From a virus, in the UHGV virus genome UHGV-0286546: 64,000 nt of DNA. One strand, written 5' to 3'. Shown in pieces: positions 4,427 to 43,308 of the stretch (the stretch's first letter is position 1; each line of letters starts with the position of its first letter). Both the position numbers and the translations under genes were made by a program. Below the pieces are notes generated by a model that saw nothing but the letters and a program-made list of their open reading frames with translations, was not told the origin of the DNA and ran no database searches.

Positions 4427-4518
4427 TAAAATTTTATAAATTATATCTTTTACATAGTAATTCCCTGAATAAAGTTCTAATAAATAATGATTGGACTAAT
4501 TTAGGGAATTATTTTATT

Positions 4519-11344: not shown

Positions 11345-11527
11345 TTCTTTATTATCCTTATCTTAAACTTAACTAAAACAGTTAATATTTAGAACTTTTG
11401 AAAGGATATAAAGAGATATTAATCTAACTTATTATATCATTCCATAAATTCTTTTATATGTATAGAACCGGAATAAAGTTAGATTATTTTTCAATACGTT
11501 ATTATTTTAAAATCTGAATGAATGTAA

Positions 11528-13720: not shown

Positions 13721-13731
13721 TTTTTCCTCTA

Positions 13732-18526: not shown

Positions 18527-19228
18527 TTATTTATCCAGTAATTCTAAATGTTTGTTAAATATTTTTTCAAGTAAACGCTGGCGGTTTTGTCTTGACATTG
18601 ATTTACAAAGGTTTGTTTCATGAGAACGATAATAATATAAAATTTCATGAATACTTAAAATAGGCATTCTTTTTAAAATCTGTAAATGAAAATCAAAATC
18701 TTCACACATTTTTAAAGATTCATCAATAGAACAATAATCAAGAACTTCTTTTTTAAACATCATTCCACCAGCATACCCTGTCCCAGCAGTCTGTTTATTC
18801 TTAATTATTTTTTCATAATTCCACTCTTTAGGCCTCGTTATATGTTGATCATAATCTCCAAAACGTTTTAATTCACAACAAACAGCACCAACCGATGGAT
18901 TTTCTTCTAATAATTCAACTTCTTTTTTAATTAAATCTTTATCAAAAATATCATCACTGCCTAATCTAACTAAATATTTACCGGTTGTTAATGAAAAAGC
19001 TTTATTTACAGACTTATTCATACCTAAATTTTTTTCATTTATATATAATTTTATTTTAGGTGATAATTTAGTTATTTCATCATAATTTACATTCGGAGAT
19101 GCGTCATTTATACAAACTATTTCTAAATTTTGATATGTTTGATTTAAGATACTATTTAAACATTCATATAAATATTGTAATTTGGTATCATATACTGTTA
19201 AAATTATTGAAACTAAAGACTGTGTCAT
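18527..19228 (-). CDS. glycosyltransferase family 2 (233 aa)
   Basis: N-terminal GT-A signature VSIILTVYDTKLQYLYECLNSILNQTYQNLEIVCINDAS. Confidence 0.7.
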   Translation of the reverse strand: MTQSLVSIILTVYDTKLQYLYECLNSILNQTYQNLEIVCINDASPNVNYDEITKLSPKIKLYINEKNLGMNKSVNKAFSLTTGKYLVRLGSDDIFDKDLIKKEVELLEENPSVGAVCCELKRFGDYDQHITRPKEWNYEKIIKNKQTAGTGYAGGMMFKKEVLDYCSIDESLKMCEDFDFHLQILKRMPILSIHEILYYYRSHETNLCKSMSRQNRQRLLEKIFNKHLELLDK

Positions 19229-19232
19229 AGCA

Positions 19233-19862
19233 TTACTCTTTGTTTAATTTATAGTTTGATAATGAGCCTTCTCTTTTTAAATAATGATAATATATACCGT
19301 TATCTGGACATTCAAAAATTTTATCTGTTAATTTATATAACCAAAATTTAAATCTACTGTCCTCTCCTTTCTTTAAAGCTGTAGGAAAACGACAATTAGG
19401 ATTATCATCTAATAATTTTTTACGGATAATAGAAGGAACTATACAACCATATTCATTTTTACCATGCTTGCCGTCTATTACTCGTATACCTCGTACAATA
19501 TCATAATCTTTGGAATGTTTATACAATTCTTCAAAATAGCCAAGATCTACTTTATCATCACTGTCAACAAAGCCAATAAATTCTCCGGTTGCATTTTTGA
19601 TAGCATGATTTCTTGCAATAGATACTCCGCTATTTGTTTTAAAATAGGTTACATGAATTCTACTATCTTTTTCGGCATATTGTTCTATTATGAATTTAGA
19701 ATCATCTGTAGAACCATCATCTACTATTAATATTTCAATATCACTCAGCGTTTGATTTACAATGGAATCTAAACATCTATTTAAATATGGAGCAGAGTTA
19801 TAAACAGGAACGATTATAGATATTTTAGGCATATATGAATCCTTGTCTTTGTAAATATTCAA
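19233..19862 (-). CDS. glycosyltransferase family 2 (209 aa)
   Basis: Classic GT2 N-terminus ISIIVPVYNSAPYLNRCLDSIVNQTLSDIEILIVDDGSTDDS. Confidence 0.8.
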   Translation of the reverse strand: MNIYKDKDSYMPKISIIVPVYNSAPYLNRCLDSIVNQTLSDIEILIVDDGSTDDSKFIIEQYAEKDSRIHVTYFKTNSGVSIARNHAIKNATGEFIGFVDSDDKVDLGYFEELYKHSKDYDIVRGIRVIDGKHGKNEYGCIVPSIIRKKLLDDNPNCRFPTALKKGEDSRFKFWLYKLTDKIFECPDNGIYYHYLKREGSLSNYKLNKE

Positions 19863-25007: not shown

Positions 25008-25187
25008 TTATTTAGAACACTCTTCTTTCTCTGGTGGTCTAAAATCAATTTCAATTTCTTCTTGCTTCTCATTAAATCTAAATGTAAAGATTTCACTGGT
25101 TGGTCTGTCTAGTGGTTGAACGTCTACTAATTCGTTGGTAACTAGACTAGGATAATATCTTTTAACAATCTCATCTAACGTTTTCAT
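25008..25187 (-). CDS. small hypothetical protein (59 aa, below track cutoff)
   Basis: ATG with upstream GGAG; clean ORF MKTLDEIVKRYYPSLV...EKEECSK abutting 24689..24976. Confidence 0.4.
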   Translation of the reverse strand: MKTLDEIVKRYYPSLVTNELVDVQPLDRPTSEIFTFRFNEKQEEIEIDFRPPEKEECSK

Positions 25188-27460: not shown

Positions 27461-27625
27461 ATATAAAATGAAACAATTAAATATATCATGGATTGGATTG
27501 GTATATACTGTATTATTACATGCTTAGCTCAGTATACAGTTTCAACAAAACTTAAAAAAGGTTTTACAAATAAATTTTTTTGGTGTATATATACATTCAA
27601 TAAATGACGAAAGGAAATGTTAAAA

Positions 27626-30548: not shown

Positions 30549-31123
30549 GGACCATAGACTTTTATACAGTTAAAGAAAGTGGTGCAAATATAAATAGAGT
30601 TATATATCATGTTGAAAATTCTGATATTGCTCTTATTAGTGCTTTTCGTTCTGATTCTTCGAAAAAACAAAATTTAGAAAATAATAAAAGATTAGCATTA
30701 GATATACATAATATTGGATTATCGTATATAAAAGTTACTGGTAATTATAAAGAAGAAAATAATTCAGAATTTACAACCGAAGATAGTTTTATAGTAATTC
30801 ATCGTCCAGAATCAAATAAAGCACAAGATGAATTTTTTGAAGAAATGCTTGGATTATGTAGAAAATATAATCAAGATGCAGTATTAATTAGTTTAAAAAA
30901 TCGAAAAGATGTCCCTATTGCTTCGTATGATAGTAATGGAAAAATTGTATATGGTCCATTTACTAAACTTACACTGAGTAATATAGAAGATTTTTATACT
31001 AGAATCCATAATCATAGGTTTAAATTTGAAAGCATTGTAGAATCAGAAGAAGGTATAAAACCGAGCGGATATTCAAATGCCATGCGATATTATGGAACAA
31101 AAGCTTTATTAAAATTAAAATAG
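30545..31123 (+). CDS. hypothetical protein (192 aa); leaderless paralog of 31592..32329
   Basis: Shares FFEEMLGLCRKYNQDAVLISL block with 31592..32329 (FKEEMLALGRKYNQETILLKL). Confidence 0.55.
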   Translation: MRTIDFYTVKESGANINRVIYHVENSDIALISAFRSDSSKKQNLENNKRLALDIHNIGLSYIKVTGNYKEENNSEFTTEDSFIVIHRPESNKAQDEFFEEMLGLCRKYNQDAVLISLKNRKDVPIASYDSNGKIVYGPFTKLTLSNIEDFYTRIHNHRFKFESIVESEEGIKPSGYSNAMRYYGTKALLKLK

Positions 31124-31591: not shown

Positions 31592-32329
31592 ATGTCAAAA
31601 TTTAAAGAAGTAGTAGAAAATGCTTTAAAAGAAAGAGGATTTTCTTTACAAAAACTAACAAATAATCTTGAGATAGATAGTCCGATATGTACGTGTTTTA
31701 TAACTGCATATTTAGAAACAAATGACAAGGAAACAAATATTGCTAATAACAACAAATTAGAATTAAATATTGTATCTCTCGGTTATGAATACGGTTATAA
31801 AAAAATCCTTGGTGGATATGTTTATTCAAATGGAACTTTTGCTAAAGAGCCTGGATTTTTAGTATCTTGTAAAAGAACTAATGTATTACCTGAAGATTTT
31901 AAAGAAGAAATGTTAGCTCTTGGCAGGAAATACAATCAAGAAACTATTTTACTAAAGTTACCAGGAGAAAAACCAGCTTACTATAATACCAGAGGTAATA
32001 AAATAGATGAAAAGGATATTGAATTCGCCTTTACAAAGCAGGTAGATCCAACAAAACCGAAAACACTTTATCCAAATGAAATTACAGCTTGGAGTAAAGG
32101 ATATACTCAATTACAAAAAGATGCAAACAAAGGTAAAAATCAAGCTATTGAATTGACCAATGAAAACTCTTCTGTTTTTGAATCGTTGATATTGACTGAT
32201 GAAGAAATCAATGAATTAAAAGAAGATACCAGAGAAAAATGTTTTTGTAGTGGCTCTGGGATATTAAGAATGGCTGCCTGTAGAGAACATTTGGGTTTAG
32301 AACCTTATCCTTGTCTCAAAAAGCGGTAA
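31592..32329 (+). CDS. member of MS(K/R)F(K/R)TIVEN-leader paralog family (245 aa)
   Basis: N-terminus MSKFKEVVENAL; body homologous to 30545..31123. Confidence 0.6.
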   Translation: MSKFKEVVENALKERGFSLQKLTNNLEIDSPICTCFITAYLETNDKETNIANNNKLELNIVSLGYEYGYKKILGGYVYSNGTFAKEPGFLVSCKRTNVLPEDFKEEMLALGRKYNQETILLKLPGEKPAYYNTRGNKIDEKDIEFAFTKQVDPTKPKTLYPNEITAWSKGYTQLQKDANKGKNQAIELTNENSSVFESLILTDEEINELKEDTREKCFCSGSGILRMAACREHLGLEPYPCLKKR

Positions 32330-32345
32330 TTTGAAAGTGTTTAAA

Positions 32346-32954
32346 ATGTCAAGCTTTAGAGAAATAGTAAATACTATTTTGAAGTCAGCTTTACTTGGTA
32401 AAAATCCTAATGTTGAATCATTAGCTATTATTACAGCTGAAGATTCCTTTGGTAAAAAAATTAACAGAAGAGACAATGCTACTCGATTGAAAGTTTTTAA
32501 GATACAATTGAAGCTAGGAGGTCATCCTTATGAAAACATTGTTGATAAATATGGAAATAAAGAGCATTCTTTTGTAATTTTTAATTTATCAAGATCTGCT
32601 GCTAAAAATTATGCAAAAGTATATGAGCAAGAATCGTTTATTTTTGGCATAAAGAATAAAGATGACATGTTATATGAATATTGGGAAACTGTAGATAATG
32701 GTAAAACTTATAATTTATCTAAAACTACAGATTTTATAAGAAATGAGCCAGAATTAGAAGATTATTTTTCTAGATTACATGATTATAAATTTAATATAGG
32801 CTTTGATTTTAATGAATCTATCGACGAAGAAACTGTAAGAAAATTAGAATCTATTACGACTCCAGAAGATAAGAAATGGATTAAAGAATATATTAATGAA
32901 GAACGTGTAGGTATGGCTTCTTATTTACATTATAAAAAGTTGTATAAAAATTAA
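32346..32954 (+). CDS. member of MSxFxxIVxN-leader paralog family (start at second ATG: MSSFREIVNTIL)
   Basis: Internal Met gives family-consensus N-terminus. Confidence 0.5.
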   Translation: MSSFREIVNTILKSALLGKNPNVESLAIITAEDSFGKKINRRDNATRLKVFKIQLKLGGHPYENIVDKYGNKEHSFVIFNLSRSAAKNYAKVYEQESFIFGIKNKDDMLYEYWETVDNGKTYNLSKTTDFIRNEPELEDYFSRLHDYKFNIGFDFNESIDEETVRKLESITTPEDKKWIKEYINEERVGMASYLHYKKLYKN

Positions 32955-32977
32955 TGTCTTAAAAGGAGAGAATCAGT

Positions 32978-33163
32978 ATGACACAAGAAGAAAAACAGAA
33001 ACGCTTAGAAGAACAGCAGTTTAAGAAAAAATGGGCCAAACGTTTGAAACTTAGCCCTATGCCAAATAAGATATCTGCAAATGTTGGTAGAGCACCTCGT
33101 TGTAATAGTAATACCGCTAAAAAAGAAGTATCTTTGGCAGTAGCTTCGAAGAAAAAGAAATAA
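32978..33163 (+). CDS. small basic (K-rich) protein (61 aa)
   Basis: Strong RBS AAGGAGAG 8 nt upstream; preferred over overlapping antisense ORF 32959..33204. Confidence 0.5.
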   Translation: MTQEEKQKRLEEQQFKKKWAKRLKLSPMPNKISANVGRAPRCNSNTAKKEVSLAVASKKKK

Positions 33164-33322
33164 TTTAATCCAATTGACTCCCTAAGCCTCTTAACAATGC
33201 GCAACTAGTCTCTGAATTAACAGTAGATGTATATATAAGCTGCAGTAATTATATATATAGGAGTCGTTTTCTGTTTTACAATACAATTAAAATACTGCAT
33301 ATAATGTATATATTAAATAAAT

Positions 33323-33595
33323 TTGAAAGATAATTTTATGAATTTACTTAATCAATGTCAAATCCGTTTATACGGTGAAAATGAGTGGAGTGAAATTAAA
33401 GAATTTTATCCGGTAGCTAAAAGTGTTTTGATTGAAACCTGGTTAGAAGATCATCCAGAATTTTATGAAAGATCGGTGTTAAGTGATGGATATAAAGAAT
33501 TGATTATTGAAACAAGACATAATGATTCTGAAGATTCTACAATACAAATTCATAAAGTAGATATTTCATATAAGTTTGATATAAAAGATTTATAA
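33323..33595 (+). CDS. hypothetical protein (90 aa)
   Basis: ORF ending 8 nt before tRNA-like element. Confidence 0.5.
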   Translation: MKDNFMNLLNQCQIRLYGENEWSEIKEFYPVAKSVLIETWLEDHPEFYERSVLSDGYKELIIETRHNDSEDSTIQIHKVDISYKFDIKDL

Positions 33596-33603
33596 ATTTT
33601 TAT

Positions 33604-33723
33604 GAGAGGGTAGCTCAGTCTGGTAGAGCAACGTAAAAAAGTATTTAGTATTTAAGTACGTTCAGCAACATATATTTTTGGTTGGTAACCCGTGTGTCGT
33701 AGGTTCAAATCCTACCCCTCTCA
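33604..33723 (+). tRNA. tRNA-like element with ~46-nt insertion replacing a canonical anticodon arm (intron-containing, disrupted or repurposed tRNA)
   Basis: Perfect acceptor GAGAGGG/CCCTCTC, canonical D-arm GCTCAGTCTGGTAGAGC and T-arm GTAGG-TTCAAAT-CCTAC, but 68 nt (33631..33698) between them with no foldable 17-nt anticodon arm; no encoded CCA. Confidence 0.45.
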
Positions 33724-34355
33724 ACAAGTTTTGGTTTGTTAGTTTAGATAGGCTATAATTAAAGTAAGTAAGTTTGGAAGTTACGACACAGACCAAATAA
33801 CCTATCGTTTCCAAATTATCTTTATCGTTGTCGTGAAGGATAAAGAGTGAAAAACTAACGTTAAAGTGACAAAAAGTATACTTAATTATCCAAAGTATTG
33901 CCAATATCACTTGAATTTATGGGTGTCGTGTTTTCGAAAGAGCATGAAGGTCAGGGTCAATCCCAAAAGAGTCACGAACGTGGATTTCATATTTTACCTC
34001 CACCTGCCCATAATTTTTTATGCTCCGTCGTAGTCTTGGTGACCACTAGTTGAATGTCTATAGCTCCAGTCAATTAGTATGGGAATACTGTTCGAATCAG
34101 TTACGGGGTACCAATTTTTATGAGTAGTTTATTAGTTCTTCTCGCCTTGGAAAATTGAACTAGTGAATAGTCATCTTGTAATGGTAAACATTCTTGACTG
34201 AAACTAAAGAAAAGTTTATATGTTTATTAGAGTAATATGGTAAGCCGCGGCTGAGACTTATAAGGGTAAGTAGATATATAGATGTAATGAAAGTTTTACC
34301 ACAGTATAAAGATTAGTAATATGAAGAAAGAATTAAATGACGCGAGGATAAAATA

Positions 34356-34541
34356 ATGAAAGCAAAGAAAATGACAATATCGATTAAAATACCTAAACCT
34401 AGAGATTTTAATCATTATACCTTACAATTAAAAGGATTGATGAGAACGAAAGTAATTAAAAATAAAAAGAAAGAAATCAAGAAATTCAATTGGAAAAAAG
34501 ATAGTACAGATTATTCAAACATTATATTAGCTAGTGCTTAA
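34356..34541 (+). CDS. small K-rich hypothetical protein (61 aa), doubtful
   Basis: ORF in AT-rich spacer; low-complexity lysine-rich. Confidence 0.3.
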   Translation: MKAKKMTISIKIPKPRDFNHYTLQLKGLMRTKVIKNKKKEIKKFNWKKDSTDYSNIILASA

Positions 34542-34562
34542 ATAATTTGTATTGTCTTCATT

Positions 34563-34650
34563 GGAGGAATGGCAGAGTGGCTTAATGCAGCGGTTTACTA
34601 AACCGTCGTACCGAAAGGTGCCGTGGGTTCAAATCCTACTTCCTCCGCCA
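34563..34650 (+). tRNA. class II tRNA (88 nt, Ser-like architecture) with non-canonical anticodon loop TTACTAA (ACT by standard register)
   Basis: Acceptor GGAGGAA/TTCCTCC, anticodon arm (G)CGGT-TTACTAA-ACCG(T), variable-arm hairpin GTACC-GAAA-GGTGC, T-arm GTGGG-TTCAAAT-CCTAC, CCA encoded. Confidence 0.5.
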
Positions 34651-34657
34651 ATTTATT

Positions 34658-34751
34658 AGGTCTGTCGTTCAATGGTTAGGACACTAGGCTTATACCCTAG
34701 CGAGCGTCTGATTAACGCGAAATCCCAGTTCGAGTCTGGGCGGACCTACCA
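34658..34751 (+). tRNA. 94-nt tRNA-like gene: anticodon arm CTAGG-CTTATAC-CCTAG (TAT) followed by a 23-nt extra arm that itself looks like an anticodon stem-loop (GCGT-CTGATTA-ACGC)
   Basis: Acceptor AGGTCTG/CGGACCT, D-arm GTTC-AATGGTTA-GGAC, T-arm CCCAG-TTCGAGT-CTGGG, CCA encoded. Confidence 0.45.
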
Positions 34752-34776
34752 GTTTTAAATAAGAAAGGAAGTATAA

Positions 34777-34971
34777 ATGAGCACACGTCAAGAATATAAT
34801 AAAAAAATTTTAGCACATATTTCTGAAAAAATAGACCAGTGTTCAGATATGCGTTTTGTACAAATTCTGTGGGCATTGAGAATTGATGATGGACAAGATA
34901 ATTTCTACGAAGAATCGAAAGAAACGTTAGAAAAAGTAGAAAACAATCTAAAGAAAATTAATAACGAATAA
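34777..34971 (+). CDS. small hypothetical protein (64 aa)
   Basis: ORF with RBS AAGGAAG. Confidence 0.5.
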   Translation: MSTRQEYNKKILAHISEKIDQCSDMRFVQILWALRIDDGQDNFYEESKETLEKVENNLKKINNE

Positions 34972-35046
34972 TATTATTTCCGGTTTTACAATATTTTTAA
35001 CAAGACATATATTTGTTTATAGATTAACAGAAAAAAGGAAGTGGAT

Positions 35047-36531
35047 ATGTCTGATAATAAAACAATGACTGAAAAAGGTGCTATTACTAATCAATCTACA
35101 TTAGACAAAGTTGTAGATTGGTTTTATCATGGAGCCGCATTACGTAGAGAAAAAAACAAAGACCGTATTATAGCTTTGTTTGATGATGCTTTTAAACAGG
35201 ATAAAACCAAAGCATTGCGTATTTTATTTTATATTCGTGATATTCGTGGTGGTCAAGGTGAAAGACGCATTTTTAGAATTTGCTTAAATCATTTGGCAAA
35301 AATAGAATCTGCTTGGTTAAAAGACAATTTGGCATTAATTGCTGAATACGGCAGATATGATGATTATTTGTGCTTGCTTGATACAGAAATTAAAAGTGCT
35401 GTAATTGATTTCGTTAAAGCACAATTAGATAAAGATATTGCTGCAATAGATAGCAATACACCTATTTCATTGCTTGCCAAATGGATGCCTTCCGTTACAA
35501 CCAAGAATAAAGAAAAAAGAAGATATTTAAATGCTCTTTTGAATTCTGGTAAATTTGGCACAGTAAAAAATTATAGACAAACGTTATCTAAACTTCGTGA
35601 TAAATTAAATATTGTTGAAAAGAATCTTTGCAATAAAGCCTTTGCTGAAATTGAATATTCTAAAGTTTCTTCTAATGCAATGTCTAAGTATTCAAAAACT
35701 AGAATTTCATCTGGATTAGCTGGTACTTTTTGGCGCAATGACTTAGATAGATTTAAAATGTATTTAGACGCTGTTAAAAACGGTAAAACAATCGACGGCA
35801 AAGAAGTAAAAATAAATGCAAAAACCTTATATCCATATGATGTTATTACAAAATATATGAGTGGTTATAGTATAAGTCATCAAGAAGATCCTGCAGCGGA
35901 AGCTCAATGGAATGCTTTACCTGATTATGTACCAGAGATTAACGGCATTGTAATTTATGATACTTCGGGTTCAATGTATGGATTACCTATGGCTGTATCT
36001 TTGTCGTTGGCTATTTATATTGCTGAAAGAAATAAATCAGAAGTTTGGCGTAATTATGTTATTCCATTCTCATCTAATGCGACTTGGAAAAAAGTAAAGG
36101 GTAACAATTTAGTAGAAAAAATTGAATCTATTTATACTGGAGATTGTTCAAATACTAATTTACAAGCAGCCTTTGATCTTATTTTAGGTAAAGCTATATA
36201 TGCGCAAGTACCTAAAGAAGATATGCCAAAACAGCTGATTATTATTAGTGATATGGAATTTGATTCGGTTTCTTCTAATAACCAAACTAATTATGAAGCT
36301 ATAAAAAGCAAATATAAGAAAGCTGGTTATGACTTACCACAATTAATCTGGTGGAACGTTGAATCAAGAAGCAATCAAACACCGATTACAGTAAATGATA
36401 AAAATTGTTTATTGCTTTCTGGCTGTTCACCGGTAGTTATGCAAGTAGCTTTGGGTGGTTCATACGATTTTATGGAAGCAATCGATAAAATTATTAACCA
36501 AGAACGTTATAGTTGCATCAATTATAATTAG
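35047..36531 (+). CDS. von Willebrand factor A (vWA) domain protein with DUF2828/TROVE-like N-terminal region
   Basis: MIDAS motif IVIYDTSGSMYG; N-terminal ALRILFYIRDIRGGQGERRIF block reminiscent of DUF2828-type proteins (uncertain); ATG at 35047 preferred over GTG at 35041. Confidence 0.6.
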   Translation: MSDNKTMTEKGAITNQSTLDKVVDWFYHGAALRREKNKDRIIALFDDAFKQDKTKALRILFYIRDIRGGQGERRIFRICLNHLAKIESAWLKDNLALIAEYGRYDDYLCLLDTEIKSAVIDFVKAQLDKDIAAIDSNTPISLLAKWMPSVTTKNKEKRRYLNALLNSGKFGTVKNYRQTLSKLRDKLNIVEKNLCNKAFAEIEYSKVSSNAMSKYSKTRISSGLAGTFWRNDLDRFKMYLDAVKNGKTIDGKEVKINAKTLYPYDVITKYMSGYSISHQEDPAAEAQWNALPDYVPEINGIVIYDTSGSMYGLPMAVSLSLAIYIAERNKSEVWRNYVIPFSSNATWKKVKGNNLVEKIESIYTGDCSNTNLQAAFDLILGKAIYAQVPKEDMPKQLIIISDMEFDSVSSNNQTNYEAIKSKYKKAGYDLPQLIWWNVESRSNQTPITVNDKNCLLLSGCSPVVMQVALGGSYDFMEAIDKIINQERYSCINYN

Positions 36532-36650
36532 TTCTTAATAACTATTAAAGACTGTGAAAAACGTACAGCAATCTATAAAATATTTTATATTGAAGACTTG
36601 CTGTGTTTTAACAGCATGATAAGGTATTAATTTCGGTTAATACCTGTTTA

Positions 36651-36715
36651 TAAGGAAGGGCCGAAACAAAAGTTTTTCGTTAAAAGACAGTCTTTACGGT
36701 CCTTCCTTTTTTTTA
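36651..36715 (+). terminator. long hairpin + T8 terminator after vWA gene
   Basis: AAGGAAGGGCCG...CGGTCCTTCCTTTTTTTT. Confidence 0.6.
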
Positions 36716-36728
36716 TCAAAGGATAGGA

Positions 36729-36977
36729 ATGTTTACAATGTTAGATTTGCATAAAAAGTCAATATATAATAAAGAAGAATTGGATAAAGCAGATTTATGT
36801 GGATGTTTCTATTGCTGCGAAGTATTTGATCCGAGTGAAATAAAAGAATACACTGATAACGGAAACACTGCACTTTGCCCATATTGTAAAGTTGATTCTG
36901 TAATACCTCTTAATAAAAACGATGAAGAGTCTAAAGAAATTTTACAAAAAATGTATGGATATTTCTTTAAAGATTAA
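36729..36977 (+). CDS. zinc-ribbon protein (82 aa)
   Basis: CGCFYCC...CPYC four-Cys pattern. Confidence 0.5.
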   Translation: MFTMLDLHKKSIYNKEELDKADLCGCFYCCEVFDPSEIKEYTDNGNTALCPYCKVDSVIPLNKNDEESKEILQKMYGYFFKD

Positions 36978-37057
36978 AATTTTATTTATTTTTTGTTTTA
37001 CATTTATATTCTATATTATATAAATATATTGTTTTTAAGTCAATATAAAAATTTTAT

Positions 37058-37130
37058 TCGGGGGTCGTCTAGTGGCAGGACATGAGATTTTGGCTCTCAT
37101 AACGTTGGTTCGAATCCAGCCCCCCGAACC
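37058..37130 (+). tRNA. tRNA-Gln (anticodon TTG)
   Basis: Acceptor TCGGGGG/CCCCCGA, anticodon arm TGAGA-TTTTGGC-TCTCA, T-loop TTCGAAT, CCA encoded. Confidence 0.75.
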
Positions 37131-37152
37131 AAAAATTGAAAGGAAAAGAAAA

Positions 37153-37380
37153 ATGAAGTTATATGATAGTGGAATTATTTTAGGTAGTGTAATTGCATTT
37201 ATGATATATGGAATAGGGTATATTATAAATGGAAAAATTAATGAACAGCCTAAAGTAGACTATCAAGAACAAAGAATTCTAAACGAAGGTTATGTAAAAA
37301 CTAATTATACAGAAGATCAAATTTTCTACAGTGATTACCAAGAATGTGTAGAATATAAAGATCATTTTTATTGTTATTAA
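37153..37380 (+). CDS. small membrane protein (start corrected to ATG after tRNA-Gln; track ORF 37072 begins inside the tRNA)
   Basis: RBS AAAGGAAAAG then ATG; hydrophobic N-terminus IILGSVIAFMIYGIGYII. Confidence 0.5.
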   Translation: MKLYDSGIILGSVIAFMIYGIGYIINGKINEQPKVDYQEQRILNEGYVKTNYTEDQIFYSDYQECVEYKDHFYCY

Positions 37381-37394
37381 TTTAGGAAGTAAAG

Positions 37395-37643
37395 ATGAAA
37401 AAAGTATTGTTAGGCATTTTTATTGTTTTATTGTTAACTGCTTGTGCTCAAGAAAGAGTACCGTACGTTAAAACAGATTGTAGAAATTGTAATTCTCAAT
37501 ATACCGTAAGAAAACCTGTAGAAATTGTATACGAAGAGATTACTTATACTACTGTTTATGAACCAAGAACATATGCTAAGACAAAAAGAGTAACGGTTCC
37601 ATATAAAAATTGTGAAAAAACTTATAAAAAATACTGTCGTTAA
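37395..37643 (+). CDS. small lipoprotein (82 aa)
   Basis: Signal peptide with lipobox LLTAC. Confidence 0.5.
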   Translation: MKKVLLGIFIVLLLTACAQERVPYVKTDCRNCNSQYTVRKPVEIVYEEITYTTVYEPRTYAKTKRVTVPYKNCEKTYKKYCR

Positions 37644-37650
37644 TAAAAAA

Positions 37651-37680
37651 TTGCTTTACAAATAAAAATTTTATGATAAT
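37651..37680 (+). promoter_or_regulatory. sigma70-like promoter TTGCTT-N17-TGATAAT (module copy 1)
   Basis: Near-consensus -35/-10 spacing; homologous copy at 43106..43136; related TTGTTTTAC motifs at 36999 and 39397. Confidence 0.55.
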
Positions 37681-37718
37681 ATAAATATATAAATTAAAAA
37701 AGAAGGGTTCTATAAACT

Positions 37719-37778
37719 ATGATGAAAATGATGTTTAAATATATTAGATTTTATAAACAGCTCAATCGAGGTGTATAA
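37719..37778 (+). CDS. 19-codon leader peptide MMKMMFKYIRFYKQLNRGV (candidate attenuator leader for downstream tRNA cluster)
   Basis: RBS AGAAGGG; first 13 codons are only ATG, AAA, TTT, TAT, ATT, AGA = codons of the downstream phage tRNAs Met/Lys/Phe/Tyr/Ile/Arg(TCT). Confidence 0.5.
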   Translation: MMKMMFKYIRFYKQLNRGV

Positions 37779-37811
37779 TTTTCTATTACGTTTTTATCAG
37801 ATAGAATTTAA

Positions 37812-37850
37812 AAGCCTCGAGAATAAGAATCGAGGCTTTATTATTATAAG
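37812..37850 (+). terminator. intrinsic terminator (AAGCCTCGA-N9-TCGAGGCTT + T-rich) between leader ORF and tRNA-Tyr
   Basis: 9-bp perfect stem; leader 3' end contains identical TCGAGG able to compete for the 5' arm. Confidence 0.6.
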
Positions 37851-37855
37851 TTTTT

Positions 37856-37940
37856 GGTTGGGTCGCATAGCGGCAATTGCTGGAGACTGTAAATCTCTTC
37901 TCTTCGGAGTTCGTAGGTTCGAGTCCTACCCCAACCACCA
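37856..37940 (+). tRNA. tRNA-Tyr (anticodon GTA), class II
   Basis: Acceptor GGTTGGG/CCCAACC, anticodon arm GGAGA-CTGTAAA-TCTCT, long variable arm, T-arm GTAGG-TTCGAGT-CCTAC, CCA. Confidence 0.8.
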
Positions 37941-37945
37941 TTTAT

Positions 37946-38023
37946 AGAGAGGTAACTCAGTTGGTCTAGAGTATTCGCCTGATATGCGAAGAGTCGTGAG
38001 TTCGAGTCTCACCCTCTCTACCA
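37946..38023 (+). tRNA. tRNA-Ile (anticodon GAT)
   Basis: Acceptor AGAGAGG/CCTCTCT, anticodon arm TTCGC-CTGATAT-GCGAA, T-arm GTGAG-TTCGAGT-CTCAC, CCA. Confidence 0.8.
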
Positions 38024-38042
38024 AATTATTTAGGGAGCATTT

Positions 38043-38600
38043 TTGTTGAGTTATAACAGATTAAAAAATTTTAGAAAATTACGAAAACTAGCTATATTAC
38101 AAGGATTTGGCGGAAAATGTCAATGTTGTGGTTATAACAAATGCGTTCAAGCTTTAGAATTTCATCATTTAAATTGTAATGATAAAGAATTTTCTATTAG
38201 TACCATTATGAATAAAAACTGGAACGAAATAAAAAATGAATTAAAAAAATGTATTTGTGTGTGTGCCAATTGTCATAGAGAAATACACAATAATTTATTA
38301 GAAATTGATGTTAATAAACAATATTTTGACGAAAACGCCGTACAAGATTATGAATGTGCTATAAATAAGGTAACAAAATATAGCAAATGTCCAATTTGCG
38401 GAGCATTAAAACCAGAATATAACAAATTTTGTTCTCGAAAATGTGCCGCGAAATCAAGAGATAGAGTAAATTGGGAACAATACGAAAGTTTAGTTTATAT
38501 TATTGATAATAAAATTGAATCTATTAATAGTATTGCTTCTAAATTAAATATTTCTTGGCAAGCTGTAAAGAAAAGATATAAAAAATTAAAATCGCAATAA
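38043..38600 (+). CDS. HNH homing endonuclease (185 aa, TTG start with AGGGAG RBS) inserted inside tRNA operon
   Basis: CQCCGYNKCVQALEFHHLNCN ... CANCHREIHNN = HNH/zinc-binding signature. Confidence 0.7.
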   Translation: MLSYNRLKNFRKLRKLAILQGFGGKCQCCGYNKCVQALEFHHLNCNDKEFSISTIMNKNWNEIKNELKKCICVCANCHREIHNNLLEIDVNKQYFDENAVQDYECAINKVTKYSKCPICGALKPEYNKFCSRKCAAKSRDRVNWEQYESLVYIIDNKIESINSIASKLNISWQAVKKRYKKLKSQ

Positions 38601-38617
38601 AGATTTGAATTATTTAT

Positions 38618-38693
38618 GGTCATGTAGCTCAGTTAGTAGAGCACCAGACTGAAAATCTGGGTGTCGTTGGGGCGGAACCAACCGTGACCACCA
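38618..38693 (+). tRNA. tRNA-Phe (anticodon GAA) with atypical T-loop GGCGGAA instead of TTCGAAT
   Basis: Acceptor GGTCATG/CGTGACC, anticodon arm CCAGA-CTGAAAA-TCTGG, T-stem GTTGG/CCAAC, CCA encoded. Confidence 0.65.
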
Positions 38694-38699
38694 TTTATT

Positions 38700-38775
38700 G
38701 GAAGTATAGCTCAGCCGGTAGAGCAACGAGCTTTTAACTCGTGGGTCATGGGTTCGAATCCCTTTGCTTCCACCA
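38700..38775 (+). tRNA. tRNA-Lys (anticodon TTT)
   Basis: Acceptor GGAAGTA/TGCTTCC, anticodon arm ACGAG-CTTTTAA-CTCGT, T-loop TTCGAAT, CCA. Confidence 0.8.
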
Positions 38776-38783
38776 ATTTTTAT

Positions 38784-38860
38784 GGCGATGTAGTTCAGCC
38801 GGTTAGAACGTATCCCTCATAAGGATAAGGTCACTTGTTCGAGTCAAGTCATCGCTACCA
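38784..38860 (+). tRNA. tRNA-Met or Ile2 (anticodon CAT), second CAT tRNA
   Basis: Acceptor GGCGATG/CATCGCT, anticodon arm TATCC-CTCATAA-GGATA, T-loop TTCGAGT, CCA. Confidence 0.75.
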
Positions 38861-38913
38861 TCTTTTTAAATTTTAAGTTCTAAACATAAAATGATTATTA
38901 CGGAGAAATTTTT

Positions 38914-39390
38914 ATGCCTAGAATTATAAAACATACAGATAAAGTTTTAGTAGAACGCTGTGAAAGTTATTGGTTAAGTCTACGACATGTAAATAGTTAT
39001 TTACCAGGGATAGAAATTTTTAAAAATCCGTCAAAGTCTGATCTTTTAAAAATGTTAAGACAAACATCTACAATACGAGGATTTGCTGATCACGAAGATG
39101 TAATTGTATGGAATGGAGAAGAAGAAATTCATGGTACAATCGAAAAGGCAATACGACAAAAGTATGGTGATGATACTTTTTCAGACGGTAAGCATAGGAT
39201 AGCAAGATTTCAAGTATTTAGAGATAAAAATAACCTTTTAGGATTTGAAGACAATGAGGGTCCCGATACAGATGAGGTAACGAATGAGTTAAAACAAACA
39301 CTTTTGGGTAACCCAAATTTCACTAAACTCTTTTCGAAAGAAGAAATACTAAATGCACAATCTCATCACATTATAGACGATGAAGAATAA
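38914..39390 (+). CDS. hypothetical protein (158 aa); leaderless paralog of 42557..43102
   Basis: Shares blocks LKERCES, TIRG(F/L)AD(H/N)EDVI(V/I)W(N/D)G, NPNFT(K/R)LFS(K/E)EEILNA(Q/D)SH with 42557..43102. Confidence 0.6.
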   Translation: MPRIIKHTDKVLVERCESYWLSLRHVNSYLPGIEIFKNPSKSDLLKMLRQTSTIRGFADHEDVIVWNGEEEIHGTIEKAIRQKYGDDTFSDGKHRIARFQVFRDKNNLLGFEDNEGPDTDEVTNELKQTLLGNPNFTKLFSKEEILNAQSHHIIDDEE

Positions 39391-39452
39391 ATAAAATTGT
39401 TTTACTTTTATTAAAAATAATATATATTTATTTTAAATAGCTTTGCATTAGA

Positions 39453-39529
39453 GGATTCTTAGCTCAATTGGATAGAGCAATAGCCTTCTAAGCTATGGGT
39501 TGCAAGTTCGAATCTTGCAGAATCCGCCA
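39453..39529 (+). tRNA. tRNA-Arg (anticodon TCT)
   Basis: Acceptor GGATTCT/AGAATCC, anticodon arm ATAGC-CTTCTAA-GCTAT, T-arm TTGCAAG-TTCGAAT-CTTGCAG, CCA. Confidence 0.8.
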
Positions 39530-39577
39530 TTTTTTTATTATTTTCTGTTTTACATTTTTTAATTATGGTGTATTTTA

Positions 39578-39855
39578 TTAATATCTGTTATGGCGGAAGT
39601 ATAGACGCTAGATGGAGTGTGGAGAGAGGAAGTGAATCCGGAATAGCTTACCTCGCAGATGAAAAGAATACGGCCGAAAGCGGTGAATAATCGCAATCGG
39701 AGAAACCGTAGAACGGAGGCTCAGACGGGATGCAAACTAACCAATTAAGTCACAATTCGCGAAGTGATGTCATCGAGCCCAAAACAAAGACCACACGTTC
39801 TAAAGGGTTGGTATTTTCTTAATAGTATATCATGGCTTTAGATAACAGATATTAA
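39578..39855 (+). ncRNA. candidate structured non-coding RNA / IR-bounded element: GC-enriched 250-nt ORF-free core flanked by perfect 14-bp inverted repeats TTAATATCTGTTAT / ATAACAGATATTAA
   Basis: No ORF >=60 aa on either strand; GC much higher than flanks; sits in tRNA island directly 3' of tRNA-Arg (T4 encodes stable RNAs C/D in its tRNA region, a precedent). Confidence 0.4.
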
Positions 39856-39887
39856 CAAAGTATATAGTGAAAGGAATGAATAAATAG

Positions 39888-40295
39888 ATGTTGGAAAAAA
39901 TAAAAGAAAAAATTAAAGATTGGTGGTTTTCTAGAGATAGTATTTTTAATTTTTATTTCTCAATATCTTCATCTGGTATTTTTATAAATTTTACTATATT
40001 AGATTACGGTATAGATTTAGATATCACTATTCCGTGTATTCTTCCTAGCTTCTATATTAAAACCTTTTATGAAAAAGAACAAGAAATCTTTACAAATAAA
40101 TTTTGGGGTGAACAGTTTACATTTGTTTCTGATTTGCGTACAGAATTTGGTACAGGTTGGTTTGTTAATCAAGATCATGCTGGTTTTAGTGCTCAAGCGT
40201 CAATTTTAGGTTTTAATTATAGTTATGAATTGAGAGATACAAGGCATTGGGATTACTTTAAAAATTGCTGGAAGAGCTGTTCAGAAGATAAATAA
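39888..40295 (+). CDS. hypothetical protein (135 aa), F/W/Y-rich
   Basis: ORF. Confidence 0.5.
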   Translation: MLEKIKEKIKDWWFSRDSIFNFYFSISSSGIFINFTILDYGIDLDITIPCILPSFYIKTFYEKEQEIFTNKFWGEQFTFVSDLRTEFGTGWFVNQDHAGFSAQASILGFNYSYELRDTRHWDYFKNCWKSCSEDK

Positions 40296-40350
40296 ATAAG
40301 ACATTCTAAAGTTCTAAGTATATATTTGGTATATTTAGGACTTTTTATTT

Positions 40351-41106
40351 ATGAGTAGATTCAGAACAATTGTAGAAAATATCATAAAAACTTTTACAGA
40401 AGACGCGTTCTCAGACAGAGATAGATATAAAGAGGCAATTGATGTATATCTTAATGTATTAGATAAAATGGAACCGTCTCTAAATACAGATAAAATTATT
40501 ACAGATAGCGCAGAATGTGTCAGTTTACAAGTAGATACACCTCATGGTCCTCTAATTGTTAGTGTTTCTCTAGATAAAGATGTACATAATGCCGGTGTAT
40601 ATTATCCAGAATACAACGCTATTGAACTTAACATACACGGTATAATGGATTTGAGTGATGAAACTATAAACATGACAGATCCGATTACCGGTGAAGAAAA
40701 TGTTACAGGTATAAATGCTAAATACTTATATAAAATTTTATCTTCTCGTGCCGTTCAAGATACATTTATTCACGAATATACCCATTTTATAGATGATAAA
40801 ACAAAGTACTCCATGAAAAAGCAAGCAGATACATATAAAAATATAGATTATTTCAATAAACCTTACGAAAGAAATGCGTTTTATATTGCTTGGTTAAATA
40901 AAATCGTTTCATATACCTATAAAAAATATGGTAAAATAATGAAAGAGTTGACACCAGATGAACGATTAAATTTTTTAAGAAATGCTTGGAAAGAAGACGA
41001 AGAATTTGTAGAATATTATAATAAACTTGAACCTGCTGCAAAGAAAAGATTTATGTCAAGATTATATAATTATTTTAGTACTGATTTCTGGTCGGATGCT
41101 GCATAA
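40351..41106 (+). CDS. leader-family member (MSRFRTIVENIIK) with HExxH zinc-metallopeptidase motif (251 aa)
   Basis: DTFIHEYTHFIDD = HEXXH; conserved N-terminal decapeptide. Confidence 0.55.
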   Translation: MSRFRTIVENIIKTFTEDAFSDRDRYKEAIDVYLNVLDKMEPSLNTDKIITDSAECVSLQVDTPHGPLIVSVSLDKDVHNAGVYYPEYNAIELNIHGIMDLSDETINMTDPITGEENVTGINAKYLYKILSSRAVQDTFIHEYTHFIDDKTKYSMKKQADTYKNIDYFNKPYERNAFYIAWLNKIVSYTYKKYGKIMKELTPDERLNFLRNAWKEDEEFVEYYNKLEPAAKKRFMSRLYNYFSTDFWSDAA

Positions 41107-41123
41107 CAAAAGGTAGATTTAAA

Positions 41124-41708
41124 ATGAGTAAAATAAGAACAATTATTGAAAATATCCTTTATGAAGGTGATAAAAAAATATTTGATAAAGAATCTGGATA
41201 CAATAGCTCTAAAGATGAGTTATATATTTATGATTTACTTAAAAAGAAATGGCCAGATGTTAAAATGAGCTATACCAGAGATGATTTTATTAATCCAGAA
41301 ACTCATCGTCATTTTCAATTAGATTTTTACGTACCTTCTGAAAATATGGGAATACAGGTAAATAAACATTGGAAACACGGTAGAAGAGTATATGATCCAT
41401 CTGATCCAAATTGTCAAAAAGATGTTCGTTGGTTAAAAAATAAAGGTGGAGATTTTTATAACAAAGTTTTGCATACCTGGACCGAATTAGATCCTATTAA
41501 ACGAGAAGTTGCAAAGCAAATAGGTATGAAATACGTAGAAATCTTTAATTTAGACGAATTTAATACTTGGTACAATAATCCAGAATTAACATACGAAGAA
41601 TATAAACAGGCTCCAGATTCTTTACAATACGACAGTGATGAATATTTTGCTGCAAAAGCTAATAATCGTGATATTTATGGTAATGATTCCGATCCGTTAG
41701 GTGCATAA
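41124..41708 (+). CDS. leader-family member (MSKIRTIIENILYE), possible nuclease-like fold (194 aa)
   Basis: Conserved N-terminus; FQLDFYVPSENMGIQVNKHWKH loosely PD-(D/E)xK-like. Confidence 0.5.
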   Translation: MSKIRTIIENILYEGDKKIFDKESGYNSSKDELYIYDLLKKKWPDVKMSYTRDDFINPETHRHFQLDFYVPSENMGIQVNKHWKHGRRVYDPSDPNCQKDVRWLKNKGGDFYNKVLHTWTELDPIKREVAKQIGMKYVEIFNLDEFNTWYNNPELTYEEYKQAPDSLQYDSDEYFAAKANNRDIYGNDSDPLGA

Positions 41709-41774
41709 TTACGGTTTTACTTTTATTTTAATATAAATTATTATATATAAAATTTAAAATAGATAGGTATAAGA

Positions 41775-42530
41775 ATGAGTAAGTTTAAAACCATCGTAGA
41801 AAATGCATTATATGAAGTTGGAGCATTGCCTTTTCCAAAAAATATTCAAGTATATGCTAAAAAAGAAAAAGTAAATTTATTTGAAATTAAATATTTACGA
41901 AAAGATGGTAAATTGGATGAACCAGGTGGAATTTGTTATGCTAAAACTGGAATTTGGAAAGATATCCGTGAAAATGAAAATGCTTTTATACGCACGCAAT
42001 TAGATGAAAAATTTAGACCAGATCAAGGCAATTTTAGTAAATATCGTGGTGGTATGATTGTATTTGCTCTGAGTGTCAATACTGTCATTGATAAATTGAA
42101 TTATAATCAATTAGTTGCAGAAATTAAAAAGATTTGGTATACCTTAATAAACAATACCTTTAAAAATAAAATGATTAAAGGTGTAGTTAATTCTATGAAA
42201 AATACTTATGCTAACATTGAAGATGCAGAGATCGGAGGTATTACAATAGGTAATAACTTTAAAGGCATGTATTTTGATGGTAATAAAGTATATAATGATA
42301 AATCAACGAGTTTAGAAATAAATGACATTTCTAGTGAGATGTTGTTATTACTAGCTATTGAAATTTGTAAAGCATTTCGTCAAGATAGCGTTTTAATCAA
42401 AGATTTCAATAAAAATAAATTCTTTTTGTGTGATTCTGAAGAAGTAGAAGGCGAAATTCCAGAAGAAAAAATAAAAAACGCTTCTAAAGACTTAGCAAAC
42501 TTAAAGAATGTAAATACAAAAACAAAATAA
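41775..42530 (+). CDS. leader-family member (MSKFKTIVENALYE), 251 aa hypothetical
   Basis: Conserved N-terminus. Confidence 0.55.
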   Translation: MSKFKTIVENALYEVGALPFPKNIQVYAKKEKVNLFEIKYLRKDGKLDEPGGICYAKTGIWKDIRENENAFIRTQLDEKFRPDQGNFSKYRGGMIVFALSVNTVIDKLNYNQLVAEIKKIWYTLINNTFKNKMIKGVVNSMKNTYANIEDAEIGGITIGNNFKGMYFDGNKVYNDKSTSLEINDISSEMLLLLAIEICKAFRQDSVLIKDFNKNKFFLCDSEEVEGEIPEEKIKNASKDLANLKNVNTKTK

Positions 42531-42556
42531 TGTATGATTTAGCAGAAAGTATAATT

Positions 42557-43102
42557 ATGAGTAGATTTAGAACAATTGTTGAAAATGCTATTGCCAAAGT
42601 AAATAAAAAACTTTTAAAAGAACGTTGTGAATCGCTTTTTATAGCACCAATGAGTCTACATAATGATGAGCGAGAAGTAGTAGAAGTACTTTATAATCCT
42701 TCGAAAGCAGAATTCAATAGAGCATTTAGAGAATGGGGTACTATACGAGGACTTGCTGACAATGAAGATGTAATTATTTGGGATGGATATAAAGCTGTTC
42801 ATGATTCAGTAAAAGAACAATTAGAAAAACAGTATGGTGCAACCTTTCCAACTAATTACGGGACATTATGCAGATTTGAAACAACACGCGAATATCCATT
42901 AATGCTCGAAGATGATACAAAACAGTATAGTCATGGTAAAGAATTAGATCCAGTAAAGCAAACCTTATTTAAAAATCCTAACTTTACACGATTATTTTCA
43001 GAAGAGGAAATACTAAATGCTGATTCTCATAATTTTGCTAATGGAGAATTCGGTGAGTTTCAAAATGATCCAGAAATATTAAAAAAGTTTGGATATGATT
43101 AA
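42557..43102 (+). CDS. leader-family member (start at MSRFRTIVENAIAK; track ORF starts 27 nt earlier), paralog of 38914..39390
   Basis: Family N-terminus at internal ATG; body homologous to 38914..39390. Confidence 0.55.
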   Translation: MSRFRTIVENAIAKVNKKLLKERCESLFIAPMSLHNDEREVVEVLYNPSKAEFNRAFREWGTIRGLADNEDVIIWDGYKAVHDSVKEQLEKQYGATFPTNYGTLCRFETTREYPLMLEDDTKQYSHGKELDPVKQTLFKNPNFTRLFSEEEILNADSHNFANGEFGEFQNDPEILKKFGYD

Positions 43103-43105
43103 AAA

Positions 43106-43136
43106 TTGCTTTACAGATATAAAATTTTATGATATT
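43106..43136 (+). promoter_or_regulatory. sigma70-like promoter TTGCTT-N18-TGATATT (module copy 2)
   Basis: ~90-bp region homologous to 37647..37735. Confidence 0.5.
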
Positions 43137-43272: not shown

Positions 43273-43308
43273 AAGCCTCTAGGATAATTACTTTCTAGAG
43301 GTTTTTTT
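43273..43308 (+). terminator. intrinsic terminator (AAGCCTCTAG-loop-CTAGAGGTTT + T7) between leader ORF and tRNA-Cys
   Basis: 10-bp stem + TTTTTTT; leader 3' end AGAGGTG can pair with the CCTCT 5' arm. Confidence 0.65.

Follow-up and report, generated by a model that had tools for sequence, protein, structure and literature searches.

In the 64,000-nucleotide stretch of the virus genome UHGV-0286546 analyzed here (hereafter the window, meaning that whole 64-kb stretch), six proteins begin with nearly the same short peptide. This leader is conserved at the protein level, behaves as a portable module, and recurs in other uncultivated phages. On balance, it seems somewhat probable that it works as a portable head-targeting propeptide on enzyme cargo, a functional counterpart of the capsid-targeting sequence (CTS) of phage T4. 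The AT-rich window (about 30% GC) comes from a myovirus genome. It carries genes for DnaB, helicase and a tail sheath approximately 25% identical to T4 gp18, and 20 tRNA genes lie between 28.6 and 43.6 kb. Exact copies of one leader protein were found on contigs of approximately 240 kb, and also in pig-gut metagenomes, and the window phage is therefore an uncultivated jumbo phage; no close relative was found among 50,697 phage genomes.

A leader peptide shared by six proteins

A preliminary description of this DNA, made from the letters alone, had pointed to six open reading frames (ORFs) starting with a near-identical decapeptide. Indeed, six plus-strand ORFs (31592, 32346, 40351, 41124, 41775 and 42557, named here by their first nucleotide; Table 1) begin with MS(K/R/S)(F/I)(K/R)(T/E)(I/V)(V/I)(E/N)(N/T)(A/I)(L/I), and scanning the six-frame translation of the 64 kb by regular expression and position-specific scoring matrix (PSSM) returned exactly these six sites, all on the plus strand and all at ORF starts. 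The starts of 32346 and 42557 were favored over an upstream TTG at 32331 and an upstream ATG at 42530, respectively, based on gene calls and on their representatives in relatives. The conserved block measures approximately 12 residues rather than the 10 first described. Residues 7-9 read I/V-V/I-E in five of the six leaders and IVN in 32346, the orthologs of which (P0029 and P0030) begin MS(R/S)FREIVNTIL. The leaders are amphipathic helices, with basic residues at positions 3 and 5 and a helical hydrophobic moment of 0.5-0.7, as compared to 0.45 for the T4 CTS.

At the nucleotide level the picture is different. Ser2 is encoded by TCA in two leaders and by AGT in four, and the 15 pairwise comparisons over codons 2-12 gave 58 identical, 38 synonymous and 69 non-synonymous codon comparisons; different codons are used in 40% of the comparisons in which the residue is identical. 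Mean DNA identity was 0.67 within the 36-nt leader, as against 0.33-0.34 in the adjoining 36 nt on either side, and no common RNA structure was detected across the six leader-gene start regions. Since Ser2 is recoded, 40% of these codons differ, the flanking DNA is dissimilar and no RNA fold is shared, the leader is conserved as a peptide, in agreement with the protein-level selection proposed earlier.

Portability of the leader and gene turnover

We then focused our attention on where the similarity among these proteins ends. In all-versus-all BLASTP comparisons it stops at residues 12-16, with the exception of two paralog pairs. Each of two leader proteins has a leaderless paralog in the window, and the alignments begin at residue 12 of the leader protein: 31592 is 33% identical to 30545 (E = 1e-12, residues 12-135 versus 9-132), and 42557 is 38% identical to 38914 (E = 8e-31, residues 12-164 versus 4-157). 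In addition, homologs of 41775 with 50% identity (P0002 and P0003) start at its residue ~35-37, i.e., they are leaderless, and the body family of 42557 also bears a leader in the contig L024. Because leaderless paralogs occur in the window, and leaderless homologs of 41775 start beyond the leader, the leader is a portable module, as had been suggested. The accompanying view that the bodies are unrelated or only pairwise related stood as far as this early end of similarity is concerned, but needs amending in that 31592, 32346, the leaderless 30545 and, weakly, 41775 all match S-AdoMet_lyase/DUF3293.

The accessory island in which these genes lie is fluid. A relative with 96-98% identity (L001) lacks 30545 and has two extra genes plus a GIY-YIG gene. 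Whole-gene cassette insertions or deletions between both genomes map to window positions 30565-31100 and 43124-43132; genes found only in the relative are a 285-aa gene, a 179-aa SAM-lyase-like gene (SAM, S-adenosylmethionine) and the GIY-YIG gene, and 30545 is found only in the window. No sign of recombination through the leader was seen at the junctions of these insertions and deletions. The SAM-lyase-like protein of the relative (L001_13723; 13723-14262), not present in the window, ends ...KSMFRNIVENIMKK right before its stop codon. This segment is identical to the 40351 leader in 9 of 12 residues, but it is C-terminal and aligns on the native C-terminal helix of the protein's paralogs, and its status is ambiguous.

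The leader-bearing bodies

Regarding the Pfam family S-AdoMet_lyase (PF23780, gathering cutoff 28 bits), both 30545 (62.8 bits) and 31592 (29.3 bits) passed, and 41775 remained below the cutoff with 21 bits; 32346 matched DUF3293 only (27.1 bits, cutoff 25). A SAM-lyase-like profile of five family members found no chain in the PDB at E<=1. The HExxH motif previously noticed in 40351 was corroborated, as HE(Y/F/V)(T/Q)H does not vary among five family members and is followed by a conserved PxE approximately 27 residues downstream; this body, for which no family-level Pfam or PDB match was found, is a putative HExxH zincin. For 41124 and 42557, no function could be assigned, and the label "nuclease-like" formerly attached to 41124, whose sole basis is a PHROG match with E = 0.0045, is unsupported. 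AlphaFold2 models of 42557 (single sequence) and 41775 (4-sequence alignment) were too poor to use, with a predicted local distance difference test (pLDDT) score of 49 and 47, respectively. Since phage SAM lyases overcome type I restriction-modification (R-M) and bacteriophage exclusion (BREX) systems (bioRxiv 10.1101/2023.02.27.530186), a counter-defence role of the cargo is plausible by analogy.

The leader in other lineages

Back-translated pattern scans, together with gene-context look-ups, revealed at least three more uncultivated phage lineages in which the leader heads additional unrelated bodies (Table 1), including a 344-aa protein. Leader-carrying orthologs of 40351 are present in L005, L011 and L040, and the ortholog of 41124 in L005 (L005_8001, 70% identity) has the leader MKNFREIVENILRE followed by G. 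Leader length is approximately 12 aa in the window and reaches up to approximately 21 in L024 and L011. Over 13 leaders, F4, I7 and V8 are each more than 90% conserved, and these three residues together with E9 are nearly invariant across lineages ranging from 22% to 30% GC.

A profile of the decapeptide across related phages had been called for earlier, and a census of 1.84 billion representative proteins gave eight true matches, all from this clade and all with the motif at residue 1. Scans of IMG/VR with the back-translated leader gave 0 matches and then 2 chance matches in a 58% GC contig, a word-index search with the leader only returned fragments only, and no leader was found in cultured phages. 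Matches from metagenome and genome scans (a Flavobacteriaceae mini-ORF, a 49-aa gut ORF and others) were mostly unrelated and were discarded. In the Flavobacteriaceae genomes L038, L041-L044 and L051, a recurrent mini-ORF or C-terminal tail reads M(S/V/A)LFK(N/D)(I/V)VENII(N/Y/D)R..., a leader-like sequence in an unrelated context.

Links to head assembly and possible protease cleavage

In several of the related contigs, leader genes are found close to head genes. In L011, a head maturation protease gene lies downstream of the leader cluster, with one gene between; its product matches PHROG 207 (E = 8e-17) and, by tblastn, annotated prohead proteases, its homologs carry PF03420, and its catalytic His and Ser align with those of T4 gp21. 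In L056, leader genes are located directly upstream of a major capsid gene, the product of which resembles the major head protein of phage QdP_Psa3 and has a weak Gp23 Pfam match. Its LLTE/A (the slash marks the known or predicted cleavage position) aligns exactly with the T4 gp23 maturation site FLTE65/A, and the leader protein beside the capsid gene, L056_7350, reads ENILTE/A (MSKFRSIVENILTE/A). Moreover, L053 contains a T4-type head module (Portal_T4, protease, Gp23), and there an N-terminal KFIENLLKE, related to (T)IVENALYE of the window, is common to three unrelated proteins.

The site of T4 gp21 is L/I-X-E, cut behind the Glu, and in Alt both termini bear a propeptide (PMC9026906). Phi-x-E-[AGS], where Phi is a hydrophobic residue, occurs within residues 10-27 of 9/17 leader proteins and of 6/112 control ORFs from the same loci (p = 4e-6), and any second Phi-x-E in 15/17 leader proteins versus 42/112 control ORFs (p = 9e-5), the orthologs not being fully independent in either comparison. 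Enrichment of a second Phi-x-E-(A/G/S) fits the gp21 cleavage rule. The proposal that the leaders obey an (L/I)xE rule agrees with the I/V-V/I-E of five of the six leaders and with the enriched second site, but not with 32346, nor with the residue following the predicted cut (P1'), which is mostly Asn. In addition, a Phi-Phi-E-N segment is common to gp23-type capsid propeptides (KIFEN in T4, QLMEN in L056 and KLLEN in L053), which is a hint only.

Promoters and transcription units

The motif AGTTCTA (AAAGTTCTA) occurs 11 times in the window, and 9 of these sites are intergenic and <=120 nt upstream of a gene on the same strand (null probability 0.041; p = 2e-11), at distances of 36-110 nt. They precede 4519, 9236, the tail sheath gene (11344), 15018, 16567 (two sites), an ORF near 21.4 kb, 38914 and 40351; AAAGTTCTA(W) is located at 4473, 9268, 11390, 15073, 16625, 16671, 21456, 38876, 40310 and 43161. 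The motif is common to the tail sheath, other virion genes and the leader gene 40351, it probably also serves 41124, which closely follows 40351, and it precedes leader genes in L001, L040, L005 and L011, as well as the L011 protease gene. From its placement, AAAGTTCTA(W) is probably a promoter of the phage's own, perhaps a late one. Its tail-sheath version, TCTAAATA, is one base away from TATAAATA, the late promoter consensus of T4; late promoters of the TATAAATA type showed no association with leader genes.

A second promoter class is sigma70-like, consisting of GGTTTTACA, a spacer of about 17 nt and a TATAAT-like hexamer. Between 27 and 51 kb, it recurs in plus-strand intergenic spacers of the tRNA/accessory region (positions 27561, 28409, 33273, 34983, 36995, 39399, 39547, 41714, 43994, 46375 and 50464), and the element resembles a sigma70-type early promoter.

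Table 1. Leader genes, leaderless paralogs and regulatory elements of the window, and leaders found in related contigs.
Feature	Location	Strand	Remarks
Leaderless paralog of 31592, 192 aa	30545..31123	+	S-AdoMet_lyase family, Pfam PF23780 E=4e-17
Leader protein 1, 245 aa	31592..32329	+	Leader MSKFKEVVENAL; S-AdoMet_lyase/DUF3293-like body
Leader protein 2, 202 aa	32346..32954	+	Leader MSSFREIVNTIL, with Asn in place of Glu9; DUF3293-like body
Leaderless paralog of 42557, 158 aa	38914..39390	+	AGTTCTA motif upstream
Leader protein 3, 251 aa	40351..41106	+	Leader MSRFRTIVENII; HExxH putative zincin body (HEYTH, residue 141)
Leader protein 4, 194 aa	41124..41708	+	Leader MSKIRTIIENILYE followed by G; body without assignable function
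Leader protein 5, 251 aa	41775..42530	+	Leader MSKFKTIVENALYE, linker of ~24 aa, then body
Leader protein 6, 181 aa	42557..43102	+	Leader MSRFRTIVENAI; body paralogous to leaderless 38914
Promoter-like motif AAAGTTCTAAATA	11390..11396	-	52 nt upstream of tail sheath gene 9383-11344 (-)
Promoter-like motif AGTTCTA	38876..38882	+	38 nt upstream of 38914
Promoter-like motif AAAGTTCTAAGTATA	40310..40316	+	41 nt ahead of leader gene 40351; also conserved in L001 and L040
Sigma70-like promoter, -35 GGTTTTAC	41714..41720	+	~17 nt, then TATAAT-like; upstream of 41775-42557
Intrinsic-terminator-like hairpin	43273..43304	+	Closes the 41775-42557 unit
Leaders in 231-249 kb relatives	L005 / L039		On orthologs of 41124 and 40351 (2 in L005)
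Two leaders MSEFR(K/E)IV..	L011, 5.3 kb contig		MSEFREIVKEAF on HExxH protein; MSEFRKIVEEVL on acidic 163-aa protein
Three tandem leader genes	L024, 22% GC contig		All begin MSQFR(T/K)IVE(K/N)(V/I)L
Leader genes and remnant	L056, 26% GC contig		On 519-aa DUF4116 repeat protein and 295-aa protein, plus a truncated remnant
One additional leader paralog	L040		Phage of the same type as the window

Proposed function of the leader and comparison with known systems

Based on these results, we propose that the leader helix, by means of its hydrophobic face F4-I7-V8-A/I11-L12, would dock a protein onto the scaffolding core during prohead assembly. A prohead protease of the gp21 family would then cut after Glu, at I-V-E9 and/or at the second Phi-x-E a few residues on, so that the mature enzyme would remain in the head and enter the cell together with the DNA. 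The cargo would be a changing set of enzymes, with several S-AdoMet-lyase/DUF3293-like members and one HExxH zincin, and its role may be immediate counter-defence before phage gene expression, e.g., SAM depletion against type I R-M and BREX. We infer each of these steps, from docking, cleavage and packaging to injection and anti-defence activity, from sequence.

The idea of capsid targeting, already raised in the preliminary description, is favored by the portability of the leader, its conservation across lineages, the amphipathic Phi-x-E helix, the gp21-type protease of related phages, the position of leader genes beside protease and capsid genes, and the promoter motif that one leader gene has in common with virion genes. 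Nevertheless, several results weigh against it. To begin with, in sequence the leader is not homologous to the T4 CTS, MKTYQEFIAE, the resemblance being one of physico-chemical pattern only. When 335 T4 ORFs were scanned with the leader PSSM, the N-termini of the internal proteins (IPs) were not picked out; the top match was NTIVENML of the prohead core protein gp68 (13.4 bits), where the TIVEN match is within chance (E about 5) and a hint only. As to cleavage, the P1' residue at I-V-E is usually Asn, otherwise Lys or Glu, and not Ala, Ser or Gly, 32346 has no Glu at this site, and 41124 is the only one among the six window members with Phi-x-E-[AGS]. Also, the T4 IPs are basic, whereas the leader proteins, with a pI of 5-7, are acidic to neutral. 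Regarding expression, the 41775-42557 operon is preceded by a sigma70-like promoter, no AGTTCTA motif was found for 31592/32346, and the leaderless 38914 does have that motif, which is therefore not specific to leader genes. As for the protease that was to be searched for, one of the gp21 type was found near leader genes in L011 and another in the head module of L053, but no gp21-family (PF03420) protease was found in the 64-kb window, outside which any protease, scaffold and capsid genes of the window phage would lie; L011, L053 and L056 are relatives, whose protease may differ from that of the window phage, and a search for homologs of the L011 protease retrieved no copy on the ~240 kb contigs. 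Finally, the cultured relative QdP_Psa3 has no such leaders, and leaders were no more similar within than between genomes (p = 0.2), for which reason a claim of co-evolution was dropped.

The closest known system is the T4 CTS, here taken as the tag of IPI, IPII and IPIII together with the propeptides of Alt and gp24 (Mullaney & Black 1996; PMC8442874, PMC3012670, PMC9026906). The CTS is cleaved once and directs any fused protein into the head (PMC8442874), and the T-even internal proteins are diverse anti-defence proteins having only the CTS in common (PMC3012670). Both systems feature a short N-terminal peptide of a similar length class on otherwise unrelated, non-essential and fast turning-over proteins of a T4-like myovirus. 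This peptide is in both cases an amphipathic helix with an aromatic residue at position 4, hydrophobic residues at 7-8, an acidic one at 9/10, and L/I-x-E. The T4 ip genes flank the T4 tRNA cluster, the window leader genes likewise lie around a tRNA cluster, and an anti-defence cargo is plausible for the window proteins too. They differ in that the window leader has approximately 12 aa with mostly Asn at P1', and in that the T4 IPs are small, basic and DNA-bound, whereas the leader cargo is of 180-520 aa, acidic and enzyme-like.

Other systems share part of these features. SPN3US/phiKZ are jumbo myoviruses with diverged paralogs that have identical N-termini (15 aa in gp53 and gp54) and x-E sites for a gp21-homologous protease (PMC5694885, PMC10052503); however, their propeptides are mostly longer than 100 aa, use A/S-x-E and occur on paralogs only, whereas the window has a short leader on unrelated bodies. 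In phage P1, an N-terminal signal, for which the first 30 residues suffice, loads the anti-restriction protein DarB into the head, but the Dar proteins of P1 lack a consensus at their N-termini, and cleavage of that signal is not described (PMC9024508). The bodies of 30545 and 31592 pass the Pfam cutoff of the family that holds the phage T3 SAM lyase and Svi3-3 (PF23780); unlike the leader proteins in our proposal, the T3 enzyme is expressed early and not packaged, and the window's SAM-lyase-like profile has no solved-structure match. Outside the viruses, the cargo-loading peptides of encapsulins are short, portable, placed at either terminus, and bring diverse enzymes into an HK97-fold shell; they differ in having no protease processing or injection and in belonging to another sequence class.

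Alternative explanations

The main rival, to which we give a low but appreciable probability, is that the leader helix mediates docking or localisation to some other partner than the prohead, either as a membrane-targeting amphipathic helix or as a tag that a common factor of phage or host recognises, e.g., a chaperone, an unfoldase or a target complex. Membrane-targeting amphipathic helices are known at the N-termini of MreB, SepF and Noc, and the leader is strongly amphipathic with its two basic residues. The leader-like copy at the C-terminus of L001_13723 would agree with such tags, which function at either end, and so would the sigma70-like, probably early, promoters of some leader genes and the acidic, not DNA-binding-like, character of the proteins. 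However, helices of this kind are rarely conserved residue for residue, as F4, I7, V8 and E9 nearly are here, and this explanation accounts neither for the Phi-x-E-[AGS] enrichment after the helix nor for the repeated adjacency to protease and capsid genes and the promoter sharing with virion genes.

We regard as improbable that all leader genes descend from one ancestral gene, the leader being no module but the most conserved helix of a very divergent family, e.g., DUF3293/SAM-lyase-like. Three or four bodies do match S-AdoMet_lyase/DUF3293, and the C-terminal segment of L001_13723 falls on a native helix of its paralogs; but the same bodies have leaderless paralogs and homologs, similarity fades right after the leader, and the leader sits on bodies not detectably related to one another (HExxH, the 41124 and 42557 families, DUF4116 repeats, and the acidic 163-aa and the 344-aa proteins). 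To a similar degree, it is doubtful that the leader proteins are prohead-targeted accessories of the assembly core or scaffold, degraded or structural, instead of injected effectors. The T4 core proteins gp67 and gp68 are gp21 substrates (PMC5694885, PMC9026906), gp68 also contains the T4 segment that best matches the leader core, and the capsid propeptides share their Phi-Phi-E-N segment; on the other side, the bodies are enzyme-like (SAM-lyase-like, HExxH) and are gained or lost between 96%-identical genomes, which is typical of accessory counter-defence genes and not of assembly factors. Lastly, an mRNA-level element at the translation start (an enhancer, as the preliminary description had considered, or a repressor operator) is scarcely credible, for although the conserved block starts exactly at the start codon and the leader genes have weak Shine-Dalgarno sequences, the synonymous recoding, the lack of a conserved RNA structure, an upstream 36 nt no more alike than random (0.34), and a peptide kept with different codons in 22-26% GC lineages all disfavor it.

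Other features of the window

No full capsid gene was found in the 64-kb window, and a search for its hidden head genes yielded a single capsid-related find, an isolated 59-aa ORF at 25008-25187 (-), between DnaB and an IMPDH-like gene. This ORF (MKTLDEIVKRYYPSLVTNELVDVQPLDRPTSEIFTFRF...) resembles the conserved N-arm of gp23-type major capsid proteins (phmmer E = 8.5e-8 to that of QdP_Psa3 and 1.7e-4 to T4 gp23), and may be a remnant or a decoy-like mini-gene. Stop-codon reassignment was considered as the cause of the ORF-poor stretches of the window, and rejected.

Among the tRNA genes, at 35041-36531 (+), lies a gene for a 496-aa DUF2828/DUF7788 protein (PHROG 850, "RNA-binding protein", E = 1.6e-115), which is kept in L005-type relatives. 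At 34563-34751 (+), ARAGORN called a tRNA-Ser with anticodon ACT (88 nt) and a tRNA-Ile with anticodon TAT (94 nt), which are unusually long and may be miscalled or intron-containing. Within the virion-gene arm, under the AGTTCTA promoter motif, a Stealth-like protein (below the Pfam cutoff) and two family-2 glycosyltransferases are encoded at 11528-12436 and 18527-19862 (-), which might point to glycosylation of virion proteins or DNA. Public collections bin contigs of this phage group into bacterial metagenome-assembled genomes (MAGs) of two different phyla, namely "Succinivibrionaceae" for L040/L046 (JBJFGR01) and "Bacilli" for L039 (JAZNQD010000009.1, 249 kb); these labels are unreliable as host assignments.

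Implications

What would be new here are the sequence of this CTS-type propeptide, the phage clade it occurs in and its enzyme cargo, the CTS principle itself being known from T4. A broader conjecture, which we consider unlikely, is that the Phi-Phi-E-N core of the leader, occurring in gp23-type propeptides and in T4 gp68 (TIVEN, VLEN), serves the T4 superfamily as a general "prohead entry code", copied by cargo to ride the scaffold. In that case, sequence could reveal the full set of proteins that uncultivated T4-like and jumbo phages inject, and SAM-lyase-like enzymes, already made, would come in along with the DNA as a first-strike counter-defence.

If the leader is a head tag, it marks the proteins that this gut jumbo phage injects, which are otherwise invisible in metagenomic genomes. 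The logic of T4, with one tag and many swappable anti-defence cargos, would then reach distant uncultivated T4-like phages and extend to enzyme cargo. Pre-packaged SAM-lyase-like enzymes would represent a new means to disarm SAM-dependent defences (type I/III R-M and BREX) before phage transcription, and engineered protein delivery by phages of gut bacteria would profit from a short portable tag whose cleavage rule is known.

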